A stretch of 64,000 bases of DNA, from assembly GCA_948466735.1 (NCBI GenBank), contig CAOKBR010000001.1:3266-67265 (forward strand). The letters run 5' to 3'. The notes beneath the pieces are model-generated. The model saw nothing but the letters and a program-made list of their open reading frames with translations. It was not told the origin of the DNA and did no database searches. Position 1 is the first letter of the stretch, and the number at the start of each line of letters is the position of its first letter. The position numbers and the translations under genes are program-made. Shown here in pieces: positions 22,177 through 54,320 of this stretch. The stretch comes from an uncultured Mycoplasmatota bacterium (GTDB taxonomy: Bacteria; Bacillota_I; Bacilli_A; RF39; UBA660).

Positions 22177-22185
22177 AAAAATGTC

Positions 22186-22370
22186 TAGAAGATACGTGTA
22201 ATACATCCAATAGTATAAAACCGACTAAGTTAACGATACGGGAGCATCGAGCAATCGCTGGTGTTGAATACCCATACATTTCTATGGGGATCCTAAAGGC
22301 GATGTAGATGCACCCACCTGTACAAATGCAGGTTTTATCGTTAGGATGACGGTCTTCTGGATTTTTTTGT
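22186..22370 (+). ncRNA. GC-richer structured leader or small RNA upstream of the tcdA-like gene; class not identified
   Basis: A roughly 185-nt segment with much higher GC than its surroundings. Local hairpin cccata-catttc-tatggg. 5' 'ctagaaga' can pair with 3' 'tcttctgg', followed by atttttttgtttt. The next gene's RBS follows directly. Confidence 0.3.
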
Positions 22371-30854: not shown

Positions 30855-33251
30855 ATGCAAAACAACATAGAGAAAAGAAAAATGGCTGTTGTTGTTATTG
30901 CTGTCATCATTGTTTTATTAGGTTCTTTATTCATCAATAAAGTGACACTGGATAAAAAAAGCATCAATCAAAATCGTCAAGAAAGTGAAAATCAAAATCA
31001 AGAAACACCAAAGGAAGATGATAATCACTTAGGTAATGAAGATGATTATCTAGACAATAATAAACAAGAAAACAATAATTCATCTTTAGAAGAATATTAT
31101 CCAATAAAGCCTACTATTTCTAATGGGAATTCTATTGATAAGGAAAAACCTAAGGTAGTACCTAACATTTCTTTACTTGGCAGTGACATCATTTATGTAG
31201 AAATCAATTCAAATTATGAAGATTTAGGCGCTATCGCAGAGGATTCTATCGATGGTAACATTACTGATAAAATTATAATTTATAATTCAGTAGATTTAAC
31301 CAAGTTAGGAACTTATACCATCTCATATTACGTTTCCAATACCAGTGGTCAAAGTGCTAGTGTGGAACGAACAATTGTAGTCTTTGATGATGTGAGTCCT
31401 ATTATTACGGTTAATCAAGAAATAGACAAAAAACTTGTATTTTTAGATGCTAATCGCAATTTAGAATTTATAAATCACGAAATTACGGTATGGGATAATT
31501 CTAATCATGATATAAGCTTAGAAATTAGTTATTGGTATCATCCGTTTATTGGTAATGCATTCAATCAAGAAGAAAATGATTTAACAACACTGGAATATAC
31601 TAAAGTAGAAAAACTTGATTTATCGCAACTAGGAATTTATCAATTAGATTATGTAGCAGTAGATGAAAGTGGCAATAGAAGTGATAAAGTATCCGTTTGG
31701 TATATGGTAAGGGATGTCAAAGGTCCTACGATTAAGTTATCTGTTATGGGAACTTCATATGCGATGATAAATCCTAAAACAATAATTGATGTTTTTGATG
31801 ATTTTAGTGATAAACTTAATACTTATTATGCTTGGTCAACATCAAATAAAATTGCACCAGTTGATTATCAAAACATTGCTAATCATCAAGAAGTATCACC
31901 AAGTAATGGGATACATTATCTATGGGTCAAAGCTGTAGATGAGTTTGGTAATACAACTGTATTGGTAAGTGATAAATTTGAAAAAGATGATACGTTATTA
32001 AAGATTCAAGAGTTTAAAACAAAAAAAGAAAATCATCAAAGTTTCATTCAAATTGGATTAGATTATGCTAACATTAAAAAAATAGATGAGATTAGTCAAA
32101 TTAAGCTATCGCTATACCACGATGAAAAGTTAATTGCTAGTGCGGTTAGTAATGATAAGTTATACAATCTAAGTTTAAATCAGGATAAATTATCACTTAG
32201 AACAAAGATAGTTATTCAAGGCGAAAAAGACGAGAGTAGTGTATTTGATGTAACAGAAGAAAATGGTAGATATCATCTAGAAAATCCAATAACAACCTTG
32301 GTGGTTACCTTAATAAAGGATAATGGTCAAGTATTAGAAGTAGAAAGTACATCTATAGATGAGTCAAATATTTGGTGGGAACAATTGTTTGTAGATTTTG
32401 ATTATTTAGTTGGAAAAAATAGGGGAGATTACTCTACTATTCAAGAGGCGATAAACGAAATATCAAATGATAAATTGTTATATCTTTTACCAGATACATA
32501 TATAGAGGATTTAACGATTTCTAAGAATGTGATTATTTTAGGAACGGATAAAGAAAAAACCATTATCAAGGGAACTACAAGCATAATGGGAAACATTGAT
32601 GTATCACTAGTGAACTTGACGCTTCAATCTAGTTTAGAAAGTCCTGCTGTAATCACCTTAAATGATGGTACGCTACAAATGGTTGATAGCATTATCGAAG
32701 ATGGAAAAGTAGGAATTAACGCTACAGGAAACGCAATTTTAAGATTAAATGGCGTTTTGATAAAGAATTTTGTTGATTCTGCCATAATCGCTCAAGATAA
32801 TGTTTCATGTAACATTACAGATAGTGAAATCATTGGAACAACTAAGAATGAAAATGGTATTATTTTATTGGATAATGCATCTAGTAATATATCTAATTCC
32901 ATTTTTAGCAATTTAAACTATGGTATTCGCATTCATGAAAAGTGTAAAGATAATGTAAAGTTAGGGGAGGGGATAACTTTCTCTAATTGTATAGAAGACT
33001 TACATATGGATATGGATGATGCTATAGATGAAGATATCATTAATGATGATACATTAAATCAAGTAGATACAAAAGATGAAGATTTGGAAACTAATGATGA
33101 ATTAACAAGTGAAAATTTATCTATAGAAAATCTAGATGATTCAATGAGCCTTAATGAAACTTTAGACTCTAATGAAATTTTAGAAACATCATCGATGGAT
33201 TCTATTACAACAACAGAAGATATTATAATAGATCAAGCTATTATAGAATAA
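30855..33251 (+). CDS. large secreted/surface protein with Ig-like repeats, a right-handed beta-helix region and an acidic C-terminal tail
   Basis: 798 aa with an N-terminal signal anchor. Repeated 'D(D)V.(S)P.I' Ig-like starts. The Asn/Ile-rich region 'ITDSEIIGTTKNENGIILLDNASSNISNSIFSNLNYGIRIH' is typical of pectate-lyase-fold repeats. The C-terminus is D/E-rich. Confidence 0.5.
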   Translation: MQNNIEKRKMAVVVIAVIIVLLGSLFINKVTLDKKSINQNRQESENQNQETPKEDDNHLGNEDDYLDNNKQENNNSSLEEYYPIKPTISNGNSIDKEKPKVVPNISLLGSDIIYVEINSNYEDLGAIAEDSIDGNITDKIIIYNSVDLTKLGTYTISYYVSNTSGQSASVERTIVVFDDVSPIITVNQEIDKKLVFLDANRNLEFINHEITVWDNSNHDISLEISYWYHPFIGNAFNQEENDLTTLEYTKVEKLDLSQLGIYQLDYVAVDESGNRSDKVSVWYMVRDVKGPTIKLSVMGTSYAMINPKTIIDVFDDFSDKLNTYYAWSTSNKIAPVDYQNIANHQEVSPSNGIHYLWVKAVDEFGNTTVLVSDKFEKDDTLLKIQEFKTKKENHQSFIQIGLDYANIKKIDEISQIKLSLYHDEKLIASAVSNDKLYNLSLNQDKLSLRTKIVIQGEKDESSVFDVTEENGRYHLENPITTLVVTLIKDNGQVLEVESTSIDESNIWWEQLFVDFDYLVGKNRGDYSTIQEAINEISNDKLLYLLPDTYIEDLTISKNVIILGTDKEKTIIKGTTSIMGNIDVSLVNLTLQSSLESPAVITLNDGTLQMVDSIIEDGKVGINATGNAILRLNGVLIKNFVDSAIIAQDNVSCNITDSEIIGTTKNENGIILLDNASSNISNSIFSNLNYGIRIHEKCKDNVKLGEGITFSNCIEDLHMDMDDAIDEDIINDDTLNQVDTKDEDLETNDELTSENLSIENLDDSMSLNETLDSNEILETSSMDSITTTEDIIIDQAIIE

Positions 33252-35438: not shown

Positions 35439-36605
35439 TTATTGTAAATTAGATAAAACACTTGTACCTATTTCGGGTTCTTCTACTTGAAAATTATCAG
35501 CGATTAATGCACCTATATCCGCTAAAGTAGCAAATGGCGATAGAATACCAGGATTTTTGAAGTCCCTACTAAATAAGATAACAGGTACATTTTCCCTAGT
35601 ATGATCGCTTCCTTGAAACGTTGGATCATTACCATGATCTGCTGTAATAATAAACAAATCTTCTGTTCCTAATTTATTTAACATCAAAGGAATTTCTACA
35701 TCTAATTCTTCAATTGCTTTAGCATAACCGATAACATCTCTTTTATGGCCATATAAAGAATCAAAATCACTTAAATTAGCATAACATAATCCCGTAAAAT
35801 TTTTATCCATAATCGAAGATAATTTATTCACCACATCATGATTATCCGTTGCTTTAATCACCTTAGTAATTCCGTCTCCATCAAAAATATCATTGATTTT
35901 TCCAATAGAAATGACATTTAACCCATGATTCTTTAGCGAACATAAAATAGAGTCTTTTGGAGGTTTTACTGCATAATCACATCGTTCATTTGTCCAGTGA
36001 AAGTGTCCAATGTTTCCTGTAAAAGGTCTAGCAATGACTCTACCTACTTTCCAATCTTCTCTTAAAGTAATCTCTCTAATTTTTTCACAATATTGATGTA
36101 GTTGTCCAACGGATACAATAGCATCATGAGCAGCCACTTGTAAATTTGAATCAGAATTGGTAAATACAATCAATGAGCCATAATTTACTTGCGTTTCCCC
36201 AAGTAATGGTAACACTTCATCTTCTTCCATCCGTTTGTTTCCAATAACACTTCTTCCTGTTACTTGTTCAATCATTTCAATTAATTCTACTGGAAATCCA
36301 TTTTGGGTAAAGGTCTTAAATGGAATAGTAGATTTTATGCCCATCATTTCATAATGTCCTGATAAGGTATCTTTGCCCACATTTGTAGGACGAGCAATGG
36401 TATAATAAGCGTCTACTTGTTTATTTTCATCCATTTGAATCGTATTTAAAAAGCCTAACTTTTTTAAATTGGGAATAAACAAATCATAGTTTTCTTTAAT
36501 ATGTCCTAGGGTATTAGCACTAGTATCTTGATACTTATCAGCATCCATTGCTGCACCTACTCCTAGGGAATCTAATACAATTAAAAAAATTCTTTTAAAT
36601 CTCAT
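35439..36605 (-). CDS. deoB: phosphopentomutase
   Basis: 'IVLDSLGVGA', 'TADHGNDPT', 388 aa. Confidence 0.9.
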   Translation of the reverse strand: MRFKRIFLIVLDSLGVGAAMDADKYQDTSANTLGHIKENYDLFIPNLKKLGFLNTIQMDENKQVDAYYTIARPTNVGKDTLSGHYEMMGIKSTIPFKTFTQNGFPVELIEMIEQVTGRSVIGNKRMEEDEVLPLLGETQVNYGSLIVFTNSDSNLQVAAHDAIVSVGQLHQYCEKIREITLREDWKVGRVIARPFTGNIGHFHWTNERCDYAVKPPKDSILCSLKNHGLNVISIGKINDIFDGDGITKVIKATDNHDVVNKLSSIMDKNFTGLCYANLSDFDSLYGHKRDVIGYAKAIEELDVEIPLMLNKLGTEDLFIITADHGNDPTFQGSDHTRENVPVILFSRDFKNPGILSPFATLADIGALIADNFQVEEPEIGTSVLSNLQ

Positions 36606-37543
36606 TTTTCCTCTCCTTTTTCGTCTTTTCTTAGATGATGTTTTTTATAGTCATCGTGTACTTTTTCATTAGAAACATGAGTATATATTTTGGTTGTCGT
36701 AATATCTTCATGCCCTAGTAGTTCTTGAATTACTCGAAGATTAGCTCCACGTTTTAACATGATGGTTGCAAAGGAATGTCTTATCGTATGGGGAGACACT
36801 TCTTTTTTTATGCCTTGCTTTAATAGAAGCTTCTTTAAGTTTTTAAAAAAGCCTTGTCTAGTAATTCCATTTCCATGATTATTTAAAAATAGAATATCTG
36901 TAGCTGGTTTACCTTTTACTAGTAAAAAAGGACGAACTTCTAGGTATTTTTCTAAATAATATTTTGCGTAATCGCCAAAGGGAATCATTCTCTCTTTTCT
37001 TCCCTTTCCTTTGATTTTAACCAATTGTGTAGAAAAGTCAAGGTCAAAAATTGTTAACTTTATTAATTCGCTAACGCGCATACCTGTAGCATACATCAAT
37101 TCTAGCATAGCTTTGTTACGGTAATCAAAGGCATTATTTAAGGGAATATTTAAAAGTTGTTCCATTTCTTTAGCATTTAGCACTTGTGGTAGACTACGTC
37201 CAATTTTAGGAGGATTAATCCCTGATGTGACATCGGCTGAAATTTGTTTTTCTCTTACTAAATAAAGAGAAAATCTACGCATGGTAGTTAAGTGTCTAGC
37301 CATACTTTTAGCACTTAAAGTGCATCCTAAAAAGGTTAAATACTCTTTTACCATTTTTTTCGTTAATCGATTTACTAAAAAGTCTTTATTATCTATCTTT
37401 CCTACACGATTATTATAGTGTTCATCTAGCCATCTGATGAATAGTTTTAAATCTTCTTGATAAGAATCTGTTGTAGCTTTGGCTAATCCTTTTTCAATTT
37501 TACAGTAGTCAATAAAATCATTCTTGGCATCTTCAATTTGCAT
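36602..37543 (-). CDS. xerD: tyrosine recombinase XerD
   Basis: 'HTIRHSFATIMLKRGANLRVIQELLGHEDITTTKIYTHV'. The catalytic R..HxxR..Y is present. Overlaps deoB by 4 nt, as in B. subtilis ripX-drm. Confidence 0.85.
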   Translation of the reverse strand: MQIEDAKNDFIDYCKIEKGLAKATTDSYQEDLKLFIRWLDEHYNNRVGKIDNKDFLVNRLTKKMVKEYLTFLGCTLSAKSMARHLTTMRRFSLYLVREKQISADVTSGINPPKIGRSLPQVLNAKEMEQLLNIPLNNAFDYRNKAMLELMYATGMRVSELIKLTIFDLDFSTQLVKIKGKGRKERMIPFGDYAKYYLEKYLEVRPFLLVKGKPATDILFLNNHGNGITRQGFFKNLKKLLLKQGIKKEVSPHTIRHSFATIMLKRGANLRVIQELLGHEDITTTKIYTHVSNEKVHDDYKKHHLRKDEKGEEK

Positions 37544-37762: not shown

Positions 37763-37791
37763 AGAAAACAAAAAGAACCGAAGTCCTTTTT
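37763..37791 (-). terminator. rho-independent terminator after essC (minus strand)
   Basis: Minus strand reads aaaaaggac-UUCG-gttcttttt then gtttt; the stem has one G.U pair. Confidence 0.4.
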
Positions 37792-40700
37792 ATAAAATCT
37801 CCTCGATATTATCATTACCACTTTGATTAGCCTCACTAGTCGTGTTAGAAGTAATTTTTGTAGAATCAAACTCTTCGATAAATTTAACTTGTACTGGACG
37901 ACTACGTGTTACAACAAAGCCAAAGTATGGTGGTAACTCTTCTCGATGTTCCCTAGTCACTTTGTTAATTTTTAAGGTAAATTGATCTCCTAAACCATTC
38001 CCTAAGTAAATTCCATAATTTGGATTTACCACATTTTTATACCAGGATTCTAGCTCTAGTCGTTTTGCTTTCTCCACATTTGCTACAATAATAAAGTGAA
38101 TTAATCCTAGGAATTTGCCCTTTTCTAAGACGCTTGCTAATAAGCTTCTATTTTCTTCATTTAACTTACTTCTAAAAGCATCAAATCCAATAATTGTACA
38201 AATAATCTTCTTTCTACTTGCAATAAAGTCTCTATTTTGATTTTTTTCTTGATATTCTATGAAAACGTCATCAATTGTTTTTTTCAACCATAAGAAGATT
38301 TCATCAAATTCTTTTTCATAATAGGAATATCCAGCATTAGGCTTAAATCCAACAATTTCTTCGGCATTAATCACTAAAACTTGTTCACGATTTAAATAGA
38401 CTAACTCATTGGTTAACGCCTTATAAAAACTAGAAAACTCTAAAATATCTTGTCCTAGAATTAAATTGACATACTGCTTAGTAAAATTAAATCCCAGTGG
38501 TTCTAAGTTTTCTTTTGCAATACCTAAAATAGGTAGTCCATTCTTTAAATAAGGATAAACATGTTTCGTTTCTACTCGTTTTGGTAAAATAGGAATGCTT
38601 CTAGCCTTTTCAAATTTTTCTGCCAAATGAGAAACGACCTTTCTAATATAATCAGGAATTTGATCAACTGGTGATACAAACGCGGTTTGAAATTCATATA
38701 TTTCTCCAAGATTTACTAAACCTCGACCTAGTATTTTTGACGGATACATTTTTTGAACATTTCCTAAAATATTACTATAATCCATGACATTCGTTTGTTG
38801 AAGTACGTACTCCATCGCAAAATTTTGTCTTACTTTAAAGCGAATGCCATTTAAATTGTTGATGGTTAACACAAAATAAATCCCATATTTTGGGGCTTCC
38901 CTTGTTAACTGGAAGAACTCATCTTCATACTTACTAAATGACTCTTGATAAGCTTCATAATTATTAATAACAACCACAATTTGAGGAATTTCCTTTCCAC
39001 TTTGCTGTAAAAAACCTTGAATAGTTCCATTAAATGGTGCAAACAATTGTTTTCTTTTTTCAATAATATCATCCATCATTTTATAAAAGTTATCCATTTT
39101 CTCATCTTCAGTCACTGTGATAATATCACCTACTTGTGGAGCATTTTCAAAACTTTTTAGCGTCTCTGATCCAAAGTCTAGTAAATAAATATTTACTTCA
39201 TTCGTTGTATATGTAGTAATTAACGAGTAAAATAATGTCGTTAAAAAGTTTTCTTTACCGCTACCAGTCATTCCATAGATAATTGCATTACCATTTTCAC
39301 TAAAAGGAATAGTTAACAAAGATTGACTTTGCTTATTTGGCATATCATATTCTCCAACAATGGGATTGATTATATGTTTTACTTTTTGGTATTGATACTT
39401 TTGAATTAAGCCTTGAACAGCAATATAACTAGGAAGTTTCTCTAACCATAAAGGACGCACCTTAATATTTATCTGTTTTGCCGCTTGAATTAAATAAGTA
39501 ACAATATTACTTAACTCTTCCCCGTGAGCTTCTATTTTTTCTTTTTTATGTTCAACATCCACTTCATGATAAATCACACCAATGTCATCAATAAATTCCA
39601 GCTTAGTATCCACTTCTTTTCTTGGCTTATCAACAGGTAAATAAGTTGCACCGCACCATGCTGCTTGACCTAAGACAAAAATTTCATTATATCCTACTTG
39701 TAAATAAAATCTTCCTGTTTGCGTTAATAATGCAGCTTCAGGAGATTTAATTACCTCGGTACTATCAGATTTTTCTTGAACACGTAAACATACCCTAAAT
39801 CTTGTATTACTCCAAATTTGATTATCCACGATACCTGATGGTTTTTGTGTTGCTAAGATCAAGTGAACGCCTAGGCTTCTACCAATTCTAGCAGTAGAGA
39901 TCAACTGTTGCATAAATTCTGGTTGTTGTGTTTTTAACTCTGCAAATTCATCGGTAATGATAAATAAATGGGAAATGGCCTCATCAACCACCCCTGCTCG
40001 ATATAATTGTTGGTACTTATAAATATCAATCGTATTTTCTTTTGATTTAGCACGCGCTTCATTAAACATTCTCTGCCGACGCTTTAACTCACTATCAATT
40101 GATGCAAACGAACGTTTAATCTCAGTTGCATCCAAGTTAGTAATGGTTCCTACTAAATGTGGTAATCTCTCACCTGTTAAATGATTTTCTAAACTTCCAC
40201 TTAATCCTCCACCTTTATAGTCAATCAAAATAAATTGAACTTCTTCTGGATGATAATTAACTGCCATTGATAAAATGTAAGTAATTAAAAGTTCACTTTT
40301 ACCACTACCTGTCATTCCAGCAACTAAACCATGAGGTCCAGCGTATTTTTCATGTAAATCCAAGCGAATTAACTCTTGATTTTTTCCAACGCCAATAGGT
40401 GCTTGTAATGATTGAATCGGGTTATTTTTCTGCCATCTAGAAATCGCATTTAACTGTTCCACAGTACCAATTTGATACATATTTAAAAAGCTTAACTTAC
40501 TTGGTAGTTTTCCTTCCACATTTAAAGTAATATCTAAAGGAATATTGGCTAAGACTCTAGCGCATTCTTCTAATTCTAAAGGGGTTGTAAAATCAATTTG
40601 AAATCTAGTTGTATTTGCGTTTAGTACATTGGCAAACAAATCAGAGTTTTTACTATTCGCATGAATAAACGTTTGACAAGATGTTGGAAGTGTTGATACA

Positions 40701-42439
40701 TTATCATTTAAGATAATCACACTAAAGCCCATATTCTTCTTACTTTCTAAAATGTGATTAATAAAATCAAAGTGTCGAACAGCTTTAAAATCGTCAATAA
40801 TTAATAAATAATGAAAAGGTATTGTATCCTCTTCTATTCTTTTTGATAAGTCGTGTTCTAGAAAATAACAAACTTCTTTTATATCGTCAGTATTAGAAGC
40901 AAAAAAACGCATTTTTTTATCATCACGGAAACAGTGAGGTAGAAATTTACTAAACTTCCAATCTTCCTTTTGACATTCATTAGTAAAAATTACAATTTTT
41001 AAATCATCATAAGAATGAAATGCCACAAGTTGTAAAATAATATTTTCAATCAATCTTTGGTTGACCTTTCTATTACCGATGATAGCGACAATATATTGTT
41101 CAACTAATGATAACGTAATAGGAACATCTACTAAATTTTTAGGTTCACTCCCTAGCGAATTTAGCATTTCTCGTAAATTATCTTCTTCTAAAGTAAAATG
41201 TTCTACTGGATAGTCAATACTAATTTTCATTGGAATAGTACCCATTCCAAGGCTTACCGTTAAAAAGTCTTGCTCTTCCTTTTTTCGCTCCCACAAATTA
41301 AATTTTTGATGAAGAATTACTTGTTTACATTCTTCTAGTGATAAATTATTTTCTAATAAAATATGTCTTTGCTGACGAATGGTATCAATAATTACTTGAC
41401 GTTTTTCTTCGATATATTCTCTATATTTCTTTTGACGTTTGGCTTCTTGCTTTTTTTGTTTTCTCTTATCAAAACGATTTGTTACAATAGGCCATAAAAT
41501 AACCGATGACATCATCGCTACACACATGACAATCGATGGTAAGACATTAATTAACTTAGCATTATTGTTTACTACATTATTAACAGCAACTAATCCCATC
41601 ATAGCAGATGACATTCCCATGGTAACCATTGGTCCTATAATAAGTAATAAAGGTCGATCATCTTCATTTACCTTGCTAGGAGGAGGGTCAATCACCATTT
41701 TTAATTCAGTTAAAATCGCCCGAAATCTAGGTTTTTTATGAAAATATGATGAGTCTTGATAAAGTTCTAACTCAATAAGTTCGTCACTTTCATTAACTGG
41801 AGCGATATATTCTTTTATTTGTTCTAAGATTAAAGGCGTTTTACACACCACTTTTTGAAAAGGCGAATTCACATTTAATAAAATTCCATCTTTTTTGATG
41901 ATAAAAACAATCTTTAATCCCATAAAAAATAAAATATCACCCGATGTTAATGCTTTAGGTTCAATTAATAATTGATGATTTAAATATACATTTTGATCAT
42001 GCATAAGATTACTAAGAATATATGATCCATTTTGATAAGTAATCTTTGCTTGAGTTGGCTTTAAGTATTCACTAGGATAGCAAATTGTATCTTCTTTGCT
42101 ACTACCAATAGTAATTTCACTTAGTAGCTCTACACGATAAAAACGATTACTAGAATCTAATAAAGGAGCCATGTATAAATACATTAACTCATGTGTCGAT
42201 ACATTTTCTAACGTATAAAAATGATACTCCTCTAAAACAACACTAGGAATCGTCATTCCCTGTTGTTTTATTGCCACTTCATAATTACTTAGTAAAACCC
42301 AATGATTTTCTTGTGCTACTACATTAATTAAGTTATCTTCACTATTAGCAAATAAATCTTTTATCCAGTAATTACCAAAAACTTGACGAGGAAGGGCAAA
42401 ATTTTTCATTTTTCCATTTTTTATGATGGACCCTTGCAT
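37790..42439 (-). CDS. essC: type VII secretion system FtsK/SpoIIIE-family ATPase EssC (YukB-like)
   Basis: 1549 aa. N-terminal FHA-like region, two TM helices, and three FtsK-type ATPase domains ('GMTGSGKSE', 'GMTGSGKEN', plus a third degenerate one). Confidence 0.9.
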   Translation of the reverse strand: MQGSIIKNGKMKNFALPRQVFGNYWIKDLFANSEDNLINVVAQENHWVLLSNYEVAIKQQGMTIPSVVLEEYHFYTLENVSTHELMYLYMAPLLDSSNRFYRVELLSEITIGSSKEDTICYPSEYLKPTQAKITYQNGSYILSNLMHDQNVYLNHQLLIEPKALTSGDILFFMGLKIVFIIKKDGILLNVNSPFQKVVCKTPLILEQIKEYIAPVNESDELIELELYQDSSYFHKKPRFRAILTELKMVIDPPPSKVNEDDRPLLLIIGPMVTMGMSSAMMGLVAVNNVVNNNAKLINVLPSIVMCVAMMSSVILWPIVTNRFDKRKQKKQEAKRQKKYREYIEEKRQVIIDTIRQQRHILLENNLSLEECKQVILHQKFNLWERKKEEQDFLTVSLGMGTIPMKISIDYPVEHFTLEEDNLREMLNSLGSEPKNLVDVPITLSLVEQYIVAIIGNRKVNQRLIENIILQLVAFHSYDDLKIVIFTNECQKEDWKFSKFLPHCFRDDKKMRFFASNTDDIKEVCYFLEHDLSKRIEEDTIPFHYLLIIDDFKAVRHFDFINHILESKKNMGFSVIILNDNVSTLPTSCQTFIHANSKNSDLFANVLNANTTRFQIDFTTPLELEECARVLANIPLDITLNVEGKLPSKLSFLNMYQIGTVEQLNAISRWQKNNPIQSLQAPIGVGKNQELIRLDLHEKYAGPHGLVAGMTGSGKSELLITYILSMAVNYHPEEVQFILIDYKGGGLSGSLENHLTGERLPHLVGTITNLDATEIKRSFASIDSELKRRQRMFNEARAKSKENTIDIYKYQQLYRAGVVDEAISHLFIITDEFAELKTQQPEFMQQLISTARIGRSLGVHLILATQKPSGIVDNQIWSNTRFRVCLRVQEKSDSTEVIKSPEAALLTQTGRFYLQVGYNEIFVLGQAAWCGATYLPVDKPRKEVDTKLEFIDDIGVIYHEVDVEHKKEKIEAHGEELSNIVTYLIQAAKQINIKVRPLWLEKLPSYIAVQGLIQKYQYQKVKHIINPIVGEYDMPNKQSQSLLTIPFSENGNAIIYGMTGSGKENFLTTLFYSLITTYTTNEVNIYLLDFGSETLKSFENAPQVGDIITVTEDEKMDNFYKMMDDIIEKRKQLFAPFNGTIQGFLQQSGKEIPQIVVVINNYEAYQESFSKYEDEFFQLTREAPKYGIYFVLTINNLNGIRFKVRQNFAMEYVLQQTNVMDYSNILGNVQKMYPSKILGRGLVNLGEIYEFQTAFVSPVDQIPDYIRKVVSHLAEKFEKARSIPILPKRVETKHVYPYLKNGLPILGIAKENLEPLGFNFTKQYVNLILGQDILEFSSFYKALTNELVYLNREQVLVINAEEIVGFKPNAGYSYYEKEFDEIFLWLKKTIDDVFIEYQEKNQNRDFIASRKKIICTIIGFDAFRSKLNEENRSLLASVLEKGKFLGLIHFIIVANVEKAKRLELESWYKNVVNPNYGIYLGNGLGDQFTLKINKVTREHREELPPYFGFVVTRSRPVQVKFIEEFDSTKITSNTTSEANQSGNDNIEEIL

Positions 42440-42539
42440 AACGTTTCCCCTTTTCTCTTTTAAAATTTCATTTTCTTATCCAAAAGATGAACCCAATTAC
42501 TTTTGGATAAAAAAACTTAGTGTTTTTAATTAAGTTTTT

Positions 42540-42839
42540 TTAATTTGAATTTCCAATAACAGATTGATCGACACTGCGATAATTTTCAACAACTTTCATT
42601 AAGTAGCGATGACAATCATCAATTGCTTGGACAAATTGTGGAAATTTTGCGCTTAACGTATCAAATTGTTCTCTAGTGTGACTAGCAGAAACTCCAGCCC
42701 AAATTTCTTCTGTTCCAATTAAACGAAACAAAGATTGGATATCATTATTTAATAATGCATCCATTTGATTAGCAGCAGATTTTAACTGTTCTGCCAAAGA
42801 CATTATTTGTTCATAAGTTAATTTTGAACCACCTAGCAT
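42540..42839 (-). CDS. WXG100-family protein
   Basis: 99 aa, helical, central 'EEIWAGVSA' (W-x-G). Confidence 0.55.
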   Translation of the reverse strand: MLGGSKLTYEQIMSLAEQLKSAANQMDALLNNDIQSLFRLIGTEEIWAGVSASHTREQFDTLSAKFPQFVQAIDDCHRYLMKVVENYRSVDQSVIGNSN

Positions 42840-42853
42840 TTTTTTTCTCCTTT

Positions 42854-43141
42854 CTATAAGTTAATTGCCCCTTCATTATCTTGACATGCTTGTTCGTATG
42901 CAGTTGCTACTCTTACCACCGTTTGTCCTAACTCTTCAATAGTATCAGACAATTTTTGCATGTACTGAGATTGTTCGGTGATTGCATTAGAATACTTCAT
43001 GGCATCACTTCCTTGCCATGCATCTTTTAACTGATTATTAATATTCATAATCTTGTTTAAAAGTTCACGAAATTCTTGACCTTTATTAGCGATTTGATTT
43101 CCTGTAGTTCTAGTTTCTTCGTAATTGATGTTTAAATCCAT
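42854..43141 (-). CDS. esxA: WXG100-family protein, EsxA/ESAT-6-like
   Basis: 95 aa with 'LKDAWQGSDAMKY' placed centrally. Confidence 0.65.
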   Translation of the reverse strand: MDLNINYEETRTTGNQIANKGQEFRELLNKIMNINNQLKDAWQGSDAMKYSNAITEQSQYMQKLSDTIEELGQTVVRVATAYEQACQDNEGAINL

Positions 43142-43243
43142 ATTGCCACCCCCTTTCCATCCTTAGCCTCTTTACTAATTCTATAATCTTATATAAATTA
43201 TATCATAAAAAAGTAAATTCAAGCAACCATTCTTTTTTGATGA

Positions 43244-44968
43244 TTATTTGTTTTTGATAAAATTAAGATATTTATCATAAGAACTATCTTTCATGTTATC
43301 AACGTATTTATACCACCAATCGTATTCTGTTCCTTGACTATCTTTATAATGGTTTGGATTTTGTACCCAGTTATTATCGTAAATATTACTTCCCTTTGCT
43401 GGTACCCATTCTGCATTAGCTCCATTATATAAAGGGTTCATGTTATAGGCTAAACTTTTTTCAGGATCATAGTAACTTTGTTCTTTTACCCAATCTAAGT
43501 AAGATTCCATTAACTTGGCTTGGGCATCTGTTCCATTTTCAATACTAGCAATAATATCGACATTACCATTTTCATCTAATACAGAAAAATCTTTATAATC
43601 TCCATTAGCACGCAAACCACCATAATTAAATTTATTTTGGGCAAGATTACTAGCGCCTAATCCACCTTCGAAATCCATAATCGCAAGAATTGTTGCTACG
43701 GTATCTTTATCTTCTATTCCATGACTAGCTAATGCATCAACCATTTTCATGCGAACTATATCAGGATTAATAATTTGCTTGCCCTTATATTCAGTGTAAA
43801 ACATATCATCGGTAACATTGATTTCTACCTTTGGCACTTTTTCACTACTTTCCTTTTCGTTTGTATTTTTATGATCAACTTTTTTCTCTTCCTTAAGGAC
43901 TGTTACTATTTTAGCAGGTTCAGTAAATAAGGAAGCTTTAGCATCGGTAGTAACACCTTCTGATTCCTTTAAACGATTAACATCCATCGCTCCAGCAAAA
44001 ATATTTTTAAATTCTTCTAGTTGAATATCTGCTAAATGATAAGTAGCATAAGCACGTATTCCTGTTTCTAGACCACTGGCCATTTTATGTTCAGATAAAG
44101 CATCTTCCAGCGCTTCAATGTTTTCAATGTAAGCATTCCACCACGAATGAATATTGCTATAACCTTGATTTACTGCTTCATAAAACTCTTTTAATTCTCC
44201 TGCTACTCGGTTGTTATTAGCATCTTCACCATTAATAGCTCCACAGCTTAAATATTCCTGATAACTATTTGCATACTCATTCATTCGTTCATTAAATGTT
44301 GCAAAGGTATCTTTTAATCCTTGCATATTGACCAAAAATTCATTTTCATTAAATGAATTAAAATAATCAATCGTATCAGCGCTTTTATAAGAAGACATAC
44401 TAGATTTGATAGAAAAATTTTCAATTACTATTAATTGTGCGTTTAATTTTTCTAAAACAATCGTTAATGCAGCGTTAGCTTTTTCAATTTCTTGCTCTAG
44501 CCTTGAAATTTCTGCTGCTACTTCTGGGACAATCACTTGTTTTGTTACAGTATTTCCGTTTTCATCAGTTACAGTGATGGTACGATATAGTTTAGGTAGT
44601 AGTGAAGATATTTCAGCTTGCATAGCATCAATACTTCCTTGAATGGTTTTTGCCTCTGCTTCATAACTTTTATAAGTATCTACATGATCTAAAAACTCAT
44701 TATATGACATTAATCCTGCCACTAAATCTTGATAACGATTTCCAAGTTGTCCCATTAAGCTAGATAATTTACTAGCACTTTCACACCTTGCTACGCTAGG
44801 AGTAGAAATTTGATGAGCCATCTCTTTTGTTTTTGCACGTGATGCTGTTGCTATAGCGTTTGAAGTCATTGTTCTAGTGACATTAGAATCAAAAGAAACT
44901 TTCCCTACTACTCTTGATGCTGCAAGCCTTTGAGCATCAACTTGGTTGTTTAACTGATAATTTCTCAT
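43244..44968 (-). CDS. T7SS-associated large helical protein with a C-terminal GH73 glucosaminidase-like (FlgJ/AcmA-type) domain
   Basis: 574 aa with no TM segment. The long N-terminal region is helical and coiled-coil. The C-terminus 'MDFEGGLGASNLAQNKFNYGGLRA' matches the GH73 core 'ILESGSGTSALAQNHNNLFGIK'. Confidence 0.5.
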   Translation of the reverse strand: MRNYQLNNQVDAQRLAASRVVGKVSFDSNVTRTMTSNAIATASRAKTKEMAHQISTPSVARCESASKLSSLMGQLGNRYQDLVAGLMSYNEFLDHVDTYKSYEAEAKTIQGSIDAMQAEISSLLPKLYRTITVTDENGNTVTKQVIVPEVAAEISRLEQEIEKANAALTIVLEKLNAQLIVIENFSIKSSMSSYKSADTIDYFNSFNENEFLVNMQGLKDTFATFNERMNEYANSYQEYLSCGAINGEDANNNRVAGELKEFYEAVNQGYSNIHSWWNAYIENIEALEDALSEHKMASGLETGIRAYATYHLADIQLEEFKNIFAGAMDVNRLKESEGVTTDAKASLFTEPAKIVTVLKEEKKVDHKNTNEKESSEKVPKVEINVTDDMFYTEYKGKQIINPDIVRMKMVDALASHGIEDKDTVATILAIMDFEGGLGASNLAQNKFNYGGLRANGDYKDFSVLDENGNVDIIASIENGTDAQAKLMESYLDWVKEQSYYDPEKSLAYNMNPLYNGANAEWVPAKGSNIYDNNWVQNPNHYKDSQGTEYDWWYKYVDNMKDSSYDKYLNFIKNK

Positions 44969-44980
44969 TACTGTACACCT

Positions 44981-45289
44981 CTATTCAATATAAAAACTAT
45001 CGTCCATAGTAGACATAATTTTTTTATCTAATTGTTGATAATTTTCTTTCGTTTTTTGTAAAACACTAATACATTTTCTTAATTCAACATCTACACTTTC
45101 TATACTATTTACAAAATTTGTTAAACGATTAGCATAGAAATCAGCAGCCCTACCTTGCCATAGACTTTTTTGATTTATTGTATTTGATACTTGTTTTACT
45201 TGTTCTAGCGTATGATTGATATCTTCTACAATGGAAGTAAATTCCACAATACAAGAATCAACTTTTTCATAAGACATTTTCTCTTTCAT
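44981..45289 (-). CDS. small WXG100-like helical protein
   Basis: Start refined to 'MKEKMSYEKV' after GGAG. Central 'SLWQGRAADFY' W-x-G motif. Confidence 0.45.
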   Translation of the reverse strand: MKEKMSYEKVDSCIVEFTSIVEDINHTLEQVKQVSNTINQKSLWQGRAADFYANRLTNFVNSIESVDVELRKCISVLQKTKENYQQLDKKIMSTMDDSFYIE

Positions 45290-45299
45290 GATTATCTCC

Positions 45300-45593
45300 T
45301 TATATGTTGATGTTTCTTTGGGCAAATGTTTTATCTAATAGTTCATATGCTCCTGGTACTTTATTTAAATATGTTCCATAGTGATTAATTTGTTTGGCTA
45401 ACTCTTGTAATCCAATGATATATTTGCTACGGATAGCATCTTGGTAAATATTAGCATCTTCCCCACTCCATGCTTCTTGTAACTGCTCCAGCAATTGATT
45501 TAATTGTTGGATTTTTTGATTAATTTGATTTGAACACTCCATTAATTCTAATCCCAAATGACGAATTTCTTCTTTTTTAATTTCAGTAATCAT
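45300..45593 (-). CDS. small WXG100-like helical protein
   Basis: Start refined to 'MITEIKKEE' after AAAGGA. Central 'QEAWSGEDANIY' W-x-G motif. Confidence 0.5.
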   Translation of the reverse strand: MITEIKKEEIRHLGLELMECSNQINQKIQQLNQLLEQLQEAWSGEDANIYQDAIRSKYIIGLQELAKQINHYGTYLNKVPGAYELLDKTFAQRNINI

Positions 45594-45606
45594 AAATATA
45601 TCCTTT

Positions 45607-45861
45607 CTATAACAATATGAGTTTAGTACCATTCCGAATATCTGTTTGTTCTAAAAGCATTTGATCTAAATATTCTTCATGAGTAATTTGATTGAGTAGA
45701 GTATAGGCATATGTCGAGATATACCTTCCATCAGATAATTCGCCAACGGCCTTTTTTAATAATTTTTTAATCGAACCTATGGTTAATTGAATAGGTAAAA
45801 ATATATCGTATTCTTCTTCAATCAAAGGGACAAATAGACGCACCAATACTTTGTTTTTCAA
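45607..45861 (-). CDS. esaB: EsaB/YukD-like small ubiquitin-fold T7SS protein
   Basis: 84 aa, GGAGG RBS, first gene of the cluster. Size and position match YukD/EsaB. The sequence match itself is weak. Confidence 0.45.
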   Translation of the reverse strand: MKNKVLVRLFVPLIEEEYDIFLPIQLTIGSIKKLLKKAVGELSDGRYISTYAYTLLNQITHEEYLDQMLLEQTDIRNGTKLILL

Positions 45862-45952: not shown

Positions 45953-45969
45953 AGGAAACGGTGATAAAT

Positions 45970-47202
45970 ATGTGTAGTCTTTTAGCGCAAAAATTAGCAC
46001 CTAAGACAATTAATGGGGTCATTGGACAAAAGCATTTACTAGGAGAAAATAAAATTTTAAGAAATTTGGTGGAAAATAAAAAGTTGTTTTCGATGATTTT
46101 ATATGGAAAACCAGGAATTGGAAAAACATCTATTGCCCTTGCTATGGTAAATGATTTGGGTGTTCGATATCGTATGCTTAATGCGACGATTAATAATAAA
46201 AAAGATTTTGATGTTGTTGTTGAAGAAGCTAAGGTGTATGATGATGGTATTGTGTTAATTATGGATGAAATTCATCGAATGAATAAGGATAAACAAGATT
46301 TACTTCTTCCACAGTTAGAAAGTGGTAGAATCACTTTAATTGGAATGACGACAAGTAATCCGTATCACGCGATTAATCCAGCGATAAGAAGTAGATGTCA
46401 TTTATTTGAGTTACATGAGTTATCAAGTGATGAAATTATCGAGGGCTTGGAAAAAGCGTGTATTTCTGAATATTTAAAAGGAATTGAAATAGATAAGGAT
46501 GCTATTTTACAAATTGCCAGTTTATCAGGAAGAGATTTACGATATGCTTATAATTTATTAGAGATGGCCTACTTTTCAACAAAAGATCAAAAAGTAACGC
46601 TTGATGTGATTAAGTCGATTAATAGTAAACCAGTAATTTTTCATGATAAAGATGGTGATGGATATTATGATGTGCTAAGTGCTTTGCAAAAGTCGATTCG
46701 AGGAAGCGATGTTAATGCTAGCCTACATTATTTAGCAAGATTAATTGAAGCGGAAGATTTGGATAGTATTTTTAGAAGGTTAAGTGTTATCGCTTATGAA
46801 GATATTGGATTAGCTAACCCTAATATTGGATCTCATGTGATGGCAGCAATTCACGCAGCTAATTTAGTAGGACTTCCTGAAGCTAGGATTCCATTAGGTA
46901 CCTTAGTAGCAGAAATGGCTCTATCTCCAAAATCAAATACAGCACACCTTGCCTTAGATAGAGCCCTAAGTGATTTAGAAACAGGGAAATGTGGAAATGT
47001 GCCTGATCACATAAAAACAACATCTACTACTTATTTATATCCGCATGACTTTCCTAATCACTGGATAAGTCAGCAGTACTTACCAGATAACATGGTCAAT
47101 AAGAAGTATTATCATCCATCTAGTATGGGTATGGAAAAAAGTTTTAAGCAAGTTTATGAAAATATTGAAAAACAAAAGAAAGACACCAAACAGCAAAAAT
47201 AG
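45970..47202 (+). CDS. rarA: replication-associated recombination protein A (AAA+ ATPase)
   Basis: 'GKPGIGKTS' Walker A, 'IMDEIHR', and a MgsA C-terminal domain. Start refined to the ATG after GGTGA. Confidence 0.85.
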   Translation: MCSLLAQKLAPKTINGVIGQKHLLGENKILRNLVENKKLFSMILYGKPGIGKTSIALAMVNDLGVRYRMLNATINNKKDFDVVVEEAKVYDDGIVLIMDEIHRMNKDKQDLLLPQLESGRITLIGMTTSNPYHAINPAIRSRCHLFELHELSSDEIIEGLEKACISEYLKGIEIDKDAILQIASLSGRDLRYAYNLLEMAYFSTKDQKVTLDVIKSINSKPVIFHDKDGDGYYDVLSALQKSIRGSDVNASLHYLARLIEAEDLDSIFRRLSVIAYEDIGLANPNIGSHVMAAIHAANLVGLPEARIPLGTLVAEMALSPKSNTAHLALDRALSDLETGKCGNVPDHIKTTSTTYLYPHDFPNHWISQQYLPDNMVNKKYYHPSSMGMEKSFKQVYENIEKQKKDTKQQK

Positions 47203-47426: not shown

Positions 47427-48545
47427 TTATCCATTTCTATCAACGAATTTTTTGAATTTACCAATTTCATTGTCTTCCAACTCAGTCTTTTCTAATTGCT
47501 CGAATAACTTCTTTTGATCGCGTGATAACTTCTTAGGCGTAATCACTTTCATGATAAAGTACATATCTCCTTTATGATGATCAGATACATTGTTAACACC
47601 TTTTCCTTTAATTCGTTGACGATCCCCATAGTCTGTTCCTGATGGAATAGTAAGTTTAACATTTCCATATAACGTTGGTACTTCTTTTTTACATCCAAGA
47701 ACTGCTTCAGTAATGGTTAGAGGAACTTCTAGGTAAATATCATCCCCTTCACGAACAAAGTAATCATGAGTTGCTACTTGAAACTCTAAATATAAGTCCC
47801 CATTACTTCCTCCGTTAGTTCCTGCTTCTCCTTTTCCTGCTACACGAAGACGATCGTTAGTTGCAACTCCAGCTGGAATGGTTACTGAAATCGTTTTATG
47901 GGCGCGAACTTTACCTTTTCCCTTACAATTAGAACAAGCTCGCTCATAAGATTTACCCTTTCCTTTACACTTTGGACAAGTTGTTTTCGTTAAGAAAGAT
48001 CCTAAGATGGTGTGTTGCTCACTAGTAATGGTACCTGATCCGTGACACTCATCACAAGTTTTCTCTCCAAAACCACCTTTTCCGTCACATTCCTTACAGT
48101 TTTCAGTAACATCTAATTCAATATCACGATTTGTTCCAAAGATAGCTTCCTCAAAGGATAATTTGATGCGCATTAAGGTATCTGCTCCACGACTAGCGCG
48201 ACTTGCTCTAGAACCACCGCCGAAACCAAATCCTGCTCCACCGAAGATATTATCAAAGATGTCTCCAAAATCAAATCCTGATGCATCAAATCCACCGAAG
48301 CCTCCAGCACCACCTGATGCTTGATCAAACGCTGCATGACCAAATTGATCATATTGACGGCGTTTAGCATCATCCGATAACACCGCGTACGCTTCTTGTA
48401 TTTCTTTAAATTTTTCTTCAGAACCAGCTTCTTTATTAATATCAGGGTGATATTGTTTTGCTAATTTTCTAAAAGCAGATTTGATTTCATCACTTGATGC
48501 ACTCTTAGAGACACCTAAGACTTCATAATAATCTTTTTTTCCCAT
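47427..48545 (-). CDS. dnaJ: molecular chaperone DnaJ
   Basis: J-domain 'YHPDINKE', a G/F-rich linker, and four CxxCxGxG zinc-finger repeats. Confidence 0.95.
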
Positions 48546-48556
48546 TGTTTCACATC

Positions 48557-50359
48557 CTAACTTTTGTTTACTTCAATAAATTGATTGATAACATCTTGAA
48601 ATAACTCTAAGGCACTTTCAATATATTTAGAGTCTTCTATATCAATATCAATGGTTTTTAATAAGGCAATTGGATAATCTTTACCACCGGATTTTAAGAA
48701 GTTAATGTATTTTTCTACATAAGTACTACCTTGTTCATTAATATTTTTTATAATTTGGCTAGCAATCGATAATCCTGTTGCATACTGATAAACATAAAAT
48801 GGTGTATAAAAGTGAGGAATTCTCTCCCATTCATAGCGAATTAAATCATCAACCACAACGTCTTTTCCAAAATATTCTTGGTTTAGTTGATAATAGTAAT
48901 CACTTAAATAATCGTTAGTAAGTACCTTACCTTCTTCTACACTTTTATGAGCAAACATTTCAAACTCAGCAAACATCGTTTGACGATAGATGGTACTTTT
49001 AAATAAGTCCATCATAGCACTTAATATTTCTAACTTTTCTTGTTTACTACTAGAGTGCTTTAACATATGTTGATAAAACAATAACTCATTTACAGTACTT
49101 GCAATCTCAGCCGTAAAAATAACGTAGCTATGATCTTCGTATGTATTATATTTTCTTGAATAGTAACTGTGCATAGAATGACCTAGTTCGTGGGCAATTG
49201 TGGACACATCATCAATATTTCCATTATAGTTTAATAAAACATATGGTAAGCTATCGTAACATCCCCAAGAGTATGCACCTGTTCTTTTTCCAATATTCGG
49301 ATACTTATCAATCCAACGGTCAGTAAAAGCATGATTTAGTTGTTCTTGATACTCATTTCCTAAGACACTTAAGGCACTTAACACAAGATTTTTTGCTTCA
49401 TCAAAAGAATACTTTCTACTTTCTCCTTCAATTAAAGGAACATAAGCATCATATAAATGAAACTCATCTAAATTTAAGACTTCTTTTTTTAGTTTAAAAT
49501 ATTGGTATAGTGGCTTAAAATTCTTTTTTACGGTATCAATTAAGGTTTGATAGACGCTTATTTCTAAATTATCATCATATAATGCTTCACTTAATGAACT
49601 ATCGTACCCTCTTACTTTAGCATTCGTACAAGCTAATTTCACTTCTGCTTCATAAGTAGAGGCAAAAGTATTTTTATAACTAGCATACGCTTGATATAAA
49701 GTAGTAAATGCTTCCTTTCGAACACTACGATTTTTAGATTCAATAAGCCCACTATAGGTACTTTCTCTTAAAGTGATTTCTTCATCTTTTTCATTATGTA
49801 CTTTTCCAAGAAGCATATCCGCATTTCGTAGAAGCGATGAAGTTTTGCTACTAGCGTTAAAGATAGAGCGAAAAGAGGATAAAAGTTGCTCTTCTTTTTC
49901 AGATAAGGTGTGCTTTTGATAACGAAATAATTGCTCAAGTACGCGCCTAAATTGGGATAATCCAGTTTCTTCATTAATGTACTTTGTTATTACTTCTTTA
50001 TCCATTTTTAATAAACTAGGTTGAAAGAAAGCCATCGCTTCTTGATATTTTGATGATAATTGCTCTACTTTTCCACTTAACGCTAAATAAGTAGCATCTC
50101 CTTTATCTTGATCACTTTTCATTGATGAGTAGACAATTAATTTATCTAGTTTTCTACTAATCATACTATCTAAGAGTAAGAAAGATAAAAGATTTTTACT
50201 AGAACTTAGACAAGTATCTTGTTGCTCTTTTATTTTTGCAATCATTTCTTCTACAGTCTTAAATTCTTGTTCTACTTCTAAATTACTAGGATAAATTTTC
50301 TCTAAATCCCAAGTATCTTCTTTTACTACTTCACTACGTTTTGGCATCGTTTTATTCAT
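48557..50359 (-). CDS. pepF: oligoendopeptidase F (M3B)
   Basis: 600 aa with the 'HELGHSMH' zinc motif. Confidence 0.85.
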
Positions 50360-50416: not shown

Positions 50417-52856
<2,440 letters not shown>

Positions 52857-54119: not shown

Positions 54120-54320
54120 CTAAAACTTTTTCCTTTTTATCAGAGGCTGATAAGCTTCACTTAAAGTAATTCTTGTTTTTCCTTCCGTGTACGTTAATAT
54201 GATTGTTGGCGTCTCTAGTGTGTTTTCTACTTTTCCTTCTTTTGCAAAAGTGACTCCTATTGTTACTATCACTAATAAAAGTAACATCACTATAGGTAAA
54301 ATGACTTTTTTATTTTTCAT
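54120..54320 (-). CDS. small secreted protein; its frame appears to continue to about 54015 after a shift in A-runs
   Basis: 66-aa ORF with a signal peptide. The adjacent frame encodes a further 34 residues before a stop ('LVGENNVFDFTVQATFVTGTVALSYGNIIVTSE'). Confidence 0.3.
   Translation of the reverse strand: MKNKKVILPIVMLLLLVIVTIGVTFAKEGKVENTLETPTIILTYTEGKTRITLSEAYQPLIKRKKF

Follow-up and report, generated by a model that had tools for sequence, protein, structure and literature searches.

Three near-universal parts, TsxA, TsxB and TsxC, are shared by type VII secretion systems (T7SS), and the variants c to j, described in a survey based on RefSeq, each add other components to them (Garrett, Higginson and Palmer 2024, PMC11217815). 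A literature search found no later paper extending this list of subtypes. In the canonical T7SSb of Bacillus subtilis, YukD bridges YukB and YukC in the core unit (PMC12637312). We analysed a stretch of 64,000 nucleotides from the genome of an uncultured bacterium (hereafter the window) in which the locus at positions 37790-45861 encodes an EssC ATPase, a YukD/EsaB-like protein, four proteins of WXG100 type and a 574-residue protein (p574), without EssB, EsaA or EssA. We consider it fairly probable that this locus represents a streamlined, functional T7SS variant of uncultured gut Bacilli, belonging to a subtype undescribed so far, with a conserved core made only of A, B and C components.

The locus consisted of seven co-oriented open reading frames (ORFs) on the minus strand, which overlap or are separated by short gaps and were read as one operon (Table 1). 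An earlier note, made from the sequence of this DNA, had placed the block between rarA and xerD; its ORF list and coordinates were reproduced, and the flanking genes were identified as rarA/MgsA and a gene for a XerD-type recombinase. The EssC, EsaB-like, two WXG-like and two WXG100 genes that it had listed were present, and models for EssA, EssB and EsaA found no match in the ORFs of the locus. Two elements of the near-universal T7SS core were represented, an FtsK/SpoIIIE ATPase of the EccC/EssC family and co-encoded WXG100 proteins; the third, a small YukD/EsaB protein, had a candidate in the 84-aa protein. Hydrophobic segments of transmembrane (TM) strength were found in EssC alone among the locus ORFs. 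A scan for promoters and terminators gave no more matches than expected by chance.

Table 1. Features of the T7SS locus and its flanking genes (positions in the window).
Feature	Position	Strand	Remark
YukD/EsaB-like, ubiquitin-like protein (TsxB), 84 aa	45607-45861	-	operon gene 1
WXG100-like small helical protein (w110), 110-aa ORF	45300-45632	-	operon gene 2
WXG100-like small helical protein (w114), 114-aa ORF	44981-45325	-	operon gene 3
574-aa protein (p574)	43244-44968	-	operon gene 4
p574 residues 1-209	44342-44968	-	helical hairpin tipped by a beta-hairpin; probable fused accessory module
p574 residues 210-334, A5 domain	43967-44341	-	helical, GYxNIxxWW motif
p574 residues 385-574	43247-43816	-	GH73-fold peptidoglycan glycosidase domain
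WXG100 protein (TsxA1), 95 aa	42854-43141	-	operon gene 5
WXG100 protein (TsxA2), 99 aa	42540-42839	-	operon gene 6
EssC/TsxC, 1549 aa	37790-42439	-	operon gene 7
EssC parts			FHA region, residues ~1-230; two TM helices, residues ~266-314; DUF/D0 domain; FtsK-like ATPase domains D1-D3
EssC FHA phosphothreonine region (residues 109-170)	~41930-42115	-	signature R-S-H-S-N-G lost
rarA/MgsA	45961-47202	+	flank
XerD-type recombinase	36602-37543	-	flank, 246 bp downstream of EssC; followed by a phosphopentomutase-like gene (deoB)

Membrane partners were searched for with models of EssB/YukC, EssA and EsaA (Pfam PF10140 and PF10661; NCBIfam TIGR03926, TIGR03927 and TIGR03929). These found no match in the locus ORFs. 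Ten membrane-type ORFs from other parts of the window gave none either and proved to be of housekeeping or surface type (GyrA, GyrB, thymidine kinase, RNase HII, FolD, a CotZ-like protein, a DUF4352 protein and an Ig-like surface protein). Similarly, phmmer searches with the EsaA, EssA and EssB proteins of Listeria and Bacillus mycoides returned nothing at E ≤ 10 from the six-frame ORFs of the window and of 43 related loci (~0.8 Mb). The loci of Listeria monocytogenes and B. mycoides (L044 and L045), both ordered esxA-esaA-essA-esaB-essB-essC, served as controls: their EsaA, EssA and EssB proteins found each other with E values of 1e-23 to 1e-236, and Pfam recognised EssA (2e-37), EsaB (1.6e-14) and EssB (4.7e-141) in Listeria. 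EsaA has no Pfam coverage, so that its absence is based on NCBIfam and phmmer.

No large polytopic ORF with the layout of EsaA was present in or beside the block, and the gap between EssC and xerD contained no TM-like ORF of at least 20 aa. The ~7 kb past the right end of the window held no EssB, EsaA or EssA and no T7SS genes. Components of another kind were also missing, since Pfam detected no kinase of the T7SSd/e/j type, Ig-like TsxI, FHA protein TsxJ or PPM phosphatase among the locus ORFs. The possibility that p574 is a divergent EssB was ruled out, as it has no TM segment, its N-terminus is helical and not a kinase, and its other domains are accounted for. The observation in the earlier note that no ORF in or next to the block has the layout of EssB or EsaA was thus borne out, with EssC as the sole TM protein and with negative profile and phmmer searches.

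Scanning species-representative genomes with the EssC protein yielded 41 loci, mostly from gut metagenome-assembled genomes (MAGs) titled 'uncultured Bacilli bacterium' or Clostridia; all related loci retrieved came from MAGs except one (L018). Neighbour-joining trees of EssC resolved three groups, clades I, II and III. Clade I comprised Clostridia MAGs and Ectobacillus, in loci with membrane Ser/Thr kinases and VWA-FHA, PP2C, TPR and Big_2 (Ig-like) proteins. Clade II was made of 13 Bacilli MAG loci (L008, L011, L012, L019, L021, L023, L026-L028, L031, L037, L038 and L040) with a fixed gene order (e.g. L021:9992-20393): EssC, a YukD-like protein, a ~560-aa HExxH lipoprotein, four small helical proteins, WXG100, a small protein and one or two DUF4176-like proteins. 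EssB, EsaA, EssA and kinases were all missing from its loci, in which EssC was the sole integral membrane protein to be conserved; this arrangement is not among the published T7SSa-j arrangements. The window locus belonged to clade III (12 loci), in which the only families recurring within 7 kb of EssC were EssC itself (12 loci), the YukD-like protein (10) and WXG100 (9), EssC being the sole one of them with TM segments.

Comparison with related genomes, which the earlier note had put forward as a check, therefore gave 25 clade II and III loci in MAGs of uncultured gut Bacilli, and not one of them contained EssB, EsaA or EssA. A Pfam census of the 128 TM proteins of these loci returned housekeeping functions only (M50 and M23 peptidases, FtsW/RodA, FeoB, FemAB, P-type ATPases and MurJ). 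The nearest relative (L002, CASRZP010000018), whose EssC is 85% identical, carried the same seven genes in the same slot between rarA and xerD-deoB.

Several proteins of related loci were considered as hidden membrane partners and rejected. A 678-aa protein with eight TM segments was FeoB, the 746-aa protein of L018 was an LPXTG 5'-nucleotidase, and a family of 304-312 aa found beside some EssC genes was Cys-rich, soluble-looking and absent from the window. A 531-aa C-terminally anchored protein of L003-L005 was a phosphoglycerate-mutase paralogue. This membrane-anchored paralogue lies directly upstream of the YukD-like gene (L003:6037-7632, L004:6471-8063 and L005:5808-7409), and a normal iPGM copy is found a few genes away.

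The FHA region of EssC showed a correlated change. The positions of FHA domains that bind phosphothreonine follow the pattern R, S-x-x-H, S-x-N-G; the window EssC reads S-K-Q-H-Q-N at these positions instead of R-S-H-S-N-G. Of the clade I EssCs, all from kinase-linked loci, 14 include the FHA region, and 13 of these kept the signature; of the 26 EssCs of clades II and III, none had it in full. It was also missing from the canonical T7SSb EssCs of Listeria and B. mycoides. The phosphothreonine site was thus lost in exactly the clades with kinase-less loci, which fits a real loss of the partners and would be less expected if the kinase had merely been relocated.

These data bear on a choice that the earlier note had left open, between membrane partners encoded elsewhere and a reduced variant. 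In a split organisation, EssB, EsaA and EssA, or else kinase, Ig-like and small TM proteins of the T7SSe/j-like kind, would be encoded at a distance from EssC. Such an arrangement would agree with the established knowledge that the experimentally studied T7SS all need extra membrane components (PMC12637312), and only ~71 kb of the source genome was covered, although no partner was matched within it. The canonical genes esaA-essA-esaB-essB-essC are, however, contiguous, with esaB between essA and essB, and here esaB and essC occur without these neighbours; moreover, the same partner-less pattern was repeated in 25 loci from many species, and the loss of the FHA site coincided with the absence of the kinase. 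The comparative evidence, namely the 25 loci, the clade III core and the purifying selection described below, favours the reduced variant, and we regard a split locus as unlikely, if still to be reckoned with.

Another explanation is that the genome contains a second T7SS of the clade II type, on which the window locus would rely as a cassette of EssC plus effector. Co-occurrence of the two clades was indeed seen in two MAGs: Lapin-032 bin82 had a clade III and a clade II EssC in tandem (L004) and a third locus (L023), and Lapin-020 bin90 had L001 (clade III) and L040 (clade II). Against this explanation, a YukD-like gene and a WXG100 pair are part of the window locus itself, which hence has a complete A/B/C set, no second locus was found in the 71 kb covered, and the clade II loci are themselves devoid of EssB, EsaA and EssA, so that even a combined system would still be reduced. 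We consider this explanation rather improbable.

The absence of components essential in model T7SSb could also indicate a decaying, non-functional remnant of a T7SS that has lost its membrane components. Comparison with L002 gave ratios of nonsynonymous to synonymous substitution rates (dN/dS) of 0.019-0.126 over the seven locus genes, at dS of 0.5-1.3; among them were the 84-aa (0.063), 95-aa (0.019), 99-aa (0.050) and EssC (0.084) genes. These values were in the range of the flanking rarA, xerD and deoB genes (0.04-0.15). All seven genes are under purifying selection, and the locus is maintained by selection. With seven intact ORFs, an intact D1 Walker A motif in EssC (GMTGSGKS, residue 708) and an arrangement kept across many species, decay was largely refuted and appears very improbable.

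FtsK-family ATPases also power conjugative DNA transfer, and a XerD-type recombinase gene lies 246 bp downstream of EssC. We nevertheless give hardly any credence to an EssC-like FtsK/SpoIIIE ATPase translocating DNA in a mobile element, because EssC matched the T7 EssC equivalog end to end (1011.7 bits, against 49.8 bits for the FtsK match), it shares its orientation with four WXG100 genes and a YukD-like gene, the rarA-locus-xerD-deoB synteny common to L002 looks chromosomal, and the GC content (~30% across the window) does not shift at the block.

The streamlined variant that we propose differs in several respects from the canonical T7SSb with which the earlier note had grouped it. In support of this label, EssC passed the NCBIfam model TIGR03928 (T7_EssCb_Firm; cutoff 778.4 bits) over residues 229-1519, in addition to matching Pfam FtsK_SpoIIIE (1.5e-44) and FHA (1.2e-5). 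Its identity to the EssCs of Listeria and B. mycoides was however only 28-29% overall and 16-18% in the FHA region, against 37-41% to the EssCs of clades I and II, which are not of type b. It reached 43-51% to members of clade III, except L016 (40%) and L002 (85%). In the neighbour-joining tree rooted on the canonical pair, this pair fell outside the three clades, at the end of a long branch. EssC is thus closer to the kinase-type loci than to the canonical ones, the T7SSb label is imprecise, and the lost partners may have been those of the kinase-type loci and not EssB, EsaA and EssA.

Like canonical T7SSb (the S. aureus ess locus and B. subtilis yukE-yukD-yukC-yukB-yueB), the window locus combines an FHA region without phosphothreonine-binding residues, a separate YukD/EsaB-like protein and WXG100 substrates, with a putative effector gene preceded by small helical partner genes. 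Unlike it, the window locus has no EssB/YukC, EsaA/YueB or EssA, and has two core WXG100 genes instead of one. Clade I loci resembling T7SSd/e/j (e.g. L007, L013 and L025) share the FHA-containing EssC, the YukD-like gene and the WXG100 genes, and among relatives with a known kind of partner their EssCs were the closest (37-41% identity). The difference from T7SSd/e/j (PMC11217815) is that clade I has kinases, VWA-FHA, PP2C and Big_2 proteins and the phosphothreonine signature, none of which was found in the clade of the window locus. The published variants c to j all have additional components that the window locus lacks. The simplest of them, T7SSg of Acetivibrio and Paenibacillus, combines two WXG100 proteins with a ubiquitin-like protein and the ATPase; its TsgC has no FHA domains, its TsgL is a DUF5050 beta-propeller, and Tad pilus genes are adjacent (PMC11217815). 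By comparison, the window EssC has an FHA region, and the window locus contained neither a DUF5050 match nor Tad pilus genes.

The 84-aa protein had no direct Pfam match and ends in ...KLILL, with no C-terminal Gly-Gly. With 32 other sequences, to which it aligns well, it makes up a family whose members always adjoin EssC and are found across all three clades. Pfam YukD was matched by nine of the 33 (best E=1.3e-4), and hhalign aligned the family over its full length with Listeria EsaB (E=0.012); used as a profile query against the PDB, the YukD-like family gave nothing significant. The 84-aa protein had no PDB match of its own either, and was provisionally accepted as YukD/EsaB-like by transitive homology and synteny.

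All four WXG proteins contain a WxG motif, and the 99-, 110- and 114-aa proteins have YxxxD near the C-terminus. The 95-aa protein scored 49.5 bits with Pfam WXG100 (gathering score 27.3) and 48.7 bits with TIGR03930 (cutoff 44.85); it carries WQG, shares 97% identity with its counterpart in L002 and was the best phmmer match in the window to Listeria EsxA (5.8e-5). The 99-aa protein, with WAG and, at the C-terminus, YRSVD as its YxxxD export motif, scored 31.7 bits with Pfam WXG100. The two genes are paired in clade III loci. This pairing, together with the match to EsxA, suggests that the products form a heterodimer of the EsxA/EsxB type, as in T7SSa, T7SSe and T7SSg.

The two WXG100-like proteins encoded upstream of p574 fell just under the Pfam gathering score: w110, with WSG and, near its C-terminus, YELLD, scored 26.3 bits, and w114, with WQG and YQQLD, scored 26.6 bits and also matched DUF3130 (E=0.019). 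In public gene calls on identical metagenomic contigs they are 97 aa (w110, probably from 45593) and 102 aa (w114, probably from 45289). A w110 homologue lies directly upstream of a protein with the A5 domain (see below) in L032, and the w114 family (c30) recurs in L002 and L032, beside the effector gene. We propose that w110 and w114 act as Lap-like targeting partners 1 and 2 of p574.

Modelling of full-length p574 from its single sequence with AlphaFold2 was unusable (pLDDT 42.6) except for residues ~110-170 (>90), which formed a helix/beta-hairpin/helix. Residues 1-209 are probably a fused accessory module resembling small, separate proteins of clade III: phmmer matched them to 151-aa T7SS-locus proteins in L024 (E=3.6e-5) and L033 (E=1.3e-3), and BLASTP to a 168-aa protein of L032 (E=0.017). 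When 1.84 billion representatives were searched exhaustively, the domain that follows, A5, was recognised as the N-terminus (~residues 5-125) of 39 proteins, most of them large (up to 1594 aa). In the L032 T7SS locus it (L032:3697-4074; E=3.9e-22) heads a 1916-aa protein, preceded by homologues of w110 and w114. A5 had no Pfam match, and a profile search of the PDB returned only spurious bromodomains (E ≥ 0.002); Pfam LXG (PF04740) matched neither p574 nor members of the A5 family. In a word-index homologue search, p574 found only itself and its C-terminus only one fragment. A5 is uncatalogued and is probably an LXG-like family of T7SS effector-targeting domains, and p574 looks like a T7SS substrate equipped with such a domain.

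The C-terminal domain of p574 had the lysozyme-like fold of GH73, and its catalytic Glu was conserved. Pfam Glucosaminidase (PF01832) did not match p574 at E ≤ 0.1, and scored 21-22 bits, below its cutoff of 30.2, with two p574 relatives (P0007 and a 391-aa protein of L004). The description of p574 in the earlier note as a 574-aa GH73-domain protein was therefore right for the C-terminal domain and incomplete for the whole, which also includes the internal LXG-like A5 domain. Membrane-anchored proteins with a GH73-like domain were encoded beside EssC in clade II (L019:8117-9298, L021:8120-9310 and L031:8542-9894) and at the edge of L004 (L004:22504-23679). This suggests a recurrent link between this group of T7SS and a wall glycosidase. 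In other clade III loci, proteins with a helical N-terminus had C-termini related to the cell wall, e.g. LysM in L010.

The arrangement around p574 resembles modules of an LXG toxin with Lap1 and Lap2, in that two small WXG100-like helical genes lie directly upstream of a larger protein, whose helical domain heads many large, otherwise different proteins. It differs from them since A5 is not Pfam LXG and is internal (residues 210-334), behind the fused 209-residue module, and no immunity gene follows p574. A wall hydrolase dedicated to T7SSb is known from S. aureus, in which the passage of EsaA through the wall depends on EssH (PMC13059805). This enzyme is a CHAP amidase/peptidase working with EsaA (PMC13059805), whereas p574 has a GH73 fold in a locus without EsaA, and, unlike EssH, appears to be itself a T7SS substrate. 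A glycoside hydrolase effector of the P. protegens type VI secretion system (PDB 4kt3) is a further comparator.

We therefore propose the following model for the streamlined T7SS. Hexamers of EssC, with two TM helices per subunit, would form the membrane channel alone, without EssB, EsaA or EssA. The YukD-like protein would bind the DUF/FHA region of EssC, as YukD does in B. subtilis, with no YukC to be bridged. The 95/99-aa heterodimer would be the obligatory core substrate, the YxxxD tail of the 99-aa protein engaging EssC. In a Lap-like manner, w110 and w114 would guide p574 to EssC, and p574 would be exported through its internal A5 domain. Once outside, its GH73-fold domain may cut peptidoglycan, either opening the producer's own wall, a role similar to that of EssH in a system without EsaA, or attacking competitors. 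More tentatively, a whole lineage of gut Bacilli may possess a T7SS with EssC as the sole membrane component and YukD-like and WXG100 proteins as helpers, in which GH73-fold wall hydrolases, exported by or linked to the T7SS, replace the wall-spanning EsaA; if so, it would demonstrate that a translocation channel can be built from EssC alone.

Several points weigh against a functional T7SS reduced to this extent. To our knowledge, no characterised T7SS works without membrane partners: S. aureus requires EssB, EsaA and EssA, and B. subtilis requires YukC and YueB. For the source genome our view covers ~71 kb, and for each related locus 5-25 kb, the relatives being MAGs, and partners may lie elsewhere. 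Two of the MAGs with a clade III locus also hold a clade II locus, and a second system could act in trans. The neighbour-joining EssC trees carry no support values, and the YukD-like assignment and the Lap-like role are based on weak homology and synteny.

Other features of the window and of related loci were recorded. The nearest relative encodes two extra proteins of 450-456 aa with N-terminal hydrophobic segments (L002:11488-12858 and L002:143-1495), one of the genes lying between EssC and xerD. The window has neither of them, and a 66-aa ORF in it (54120-54320) has only their leader in common. A 798-aa protein (30855-33251, plus strand) that combines a bacterial surface Ig-like domain with a hydrophobic segment at its N-terminus is encoded 4.5 kb from EssC, beyond xerD and deoB; it is syntenic in L002 and did not cluster by BLAST with the Ig-like T7SS proteins of clade I. 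A pepF-like oligoendopeptidase gene (48557-50359) is inserted between dnaK (50417-52243) and dnaJ (47427-48545) in an otherwise standard hrcA-grpE-dnaK-dnaJ cluster. A 6S RNA (22179-22367, plus strand; Rfam RF00013, 71.7 bits) lies between a 307-aa minus-strand ORF, which it slightly overlaps, and a ThiF-family gene. The minus-strand region 800-1672 contains a CotZ-like spore-coat ORF (1241-1672) next to a 141-aa ORF (800-1225); genes for YlbD_coat and YlbE were found at L046:12261-12832. Together, CotZ-like, YlbD_coat and YlbE suggest a spore-forming host within the Bacilli. Just beyond the end of the window, a T2SSE-type ATPase is encoded.

Which subunits form the T7SS channel is an open question, and it is unclear why the same ATPase needs a different set of membrane partners in T7SSa, in T7SSb and in each of the variants c to j. 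The present results show that arrangements common among uncultured gut bacteria escape the RefSeq-based catalogue of T7SS variants, and A5 adds an uncatalogued family of putative effector-targeting domains. If the proposal is correct, the locus would represent a natural minimal T7SS, in which it could be tested whether EssC suffices for export and for forming the channel. It would also allow the role of the YukD-like protein and of phosphothreonine-blind FHA domains to be learnt in a system without EssB or a kinase, and could reveal how substrates cross the cell wall without EsaA.

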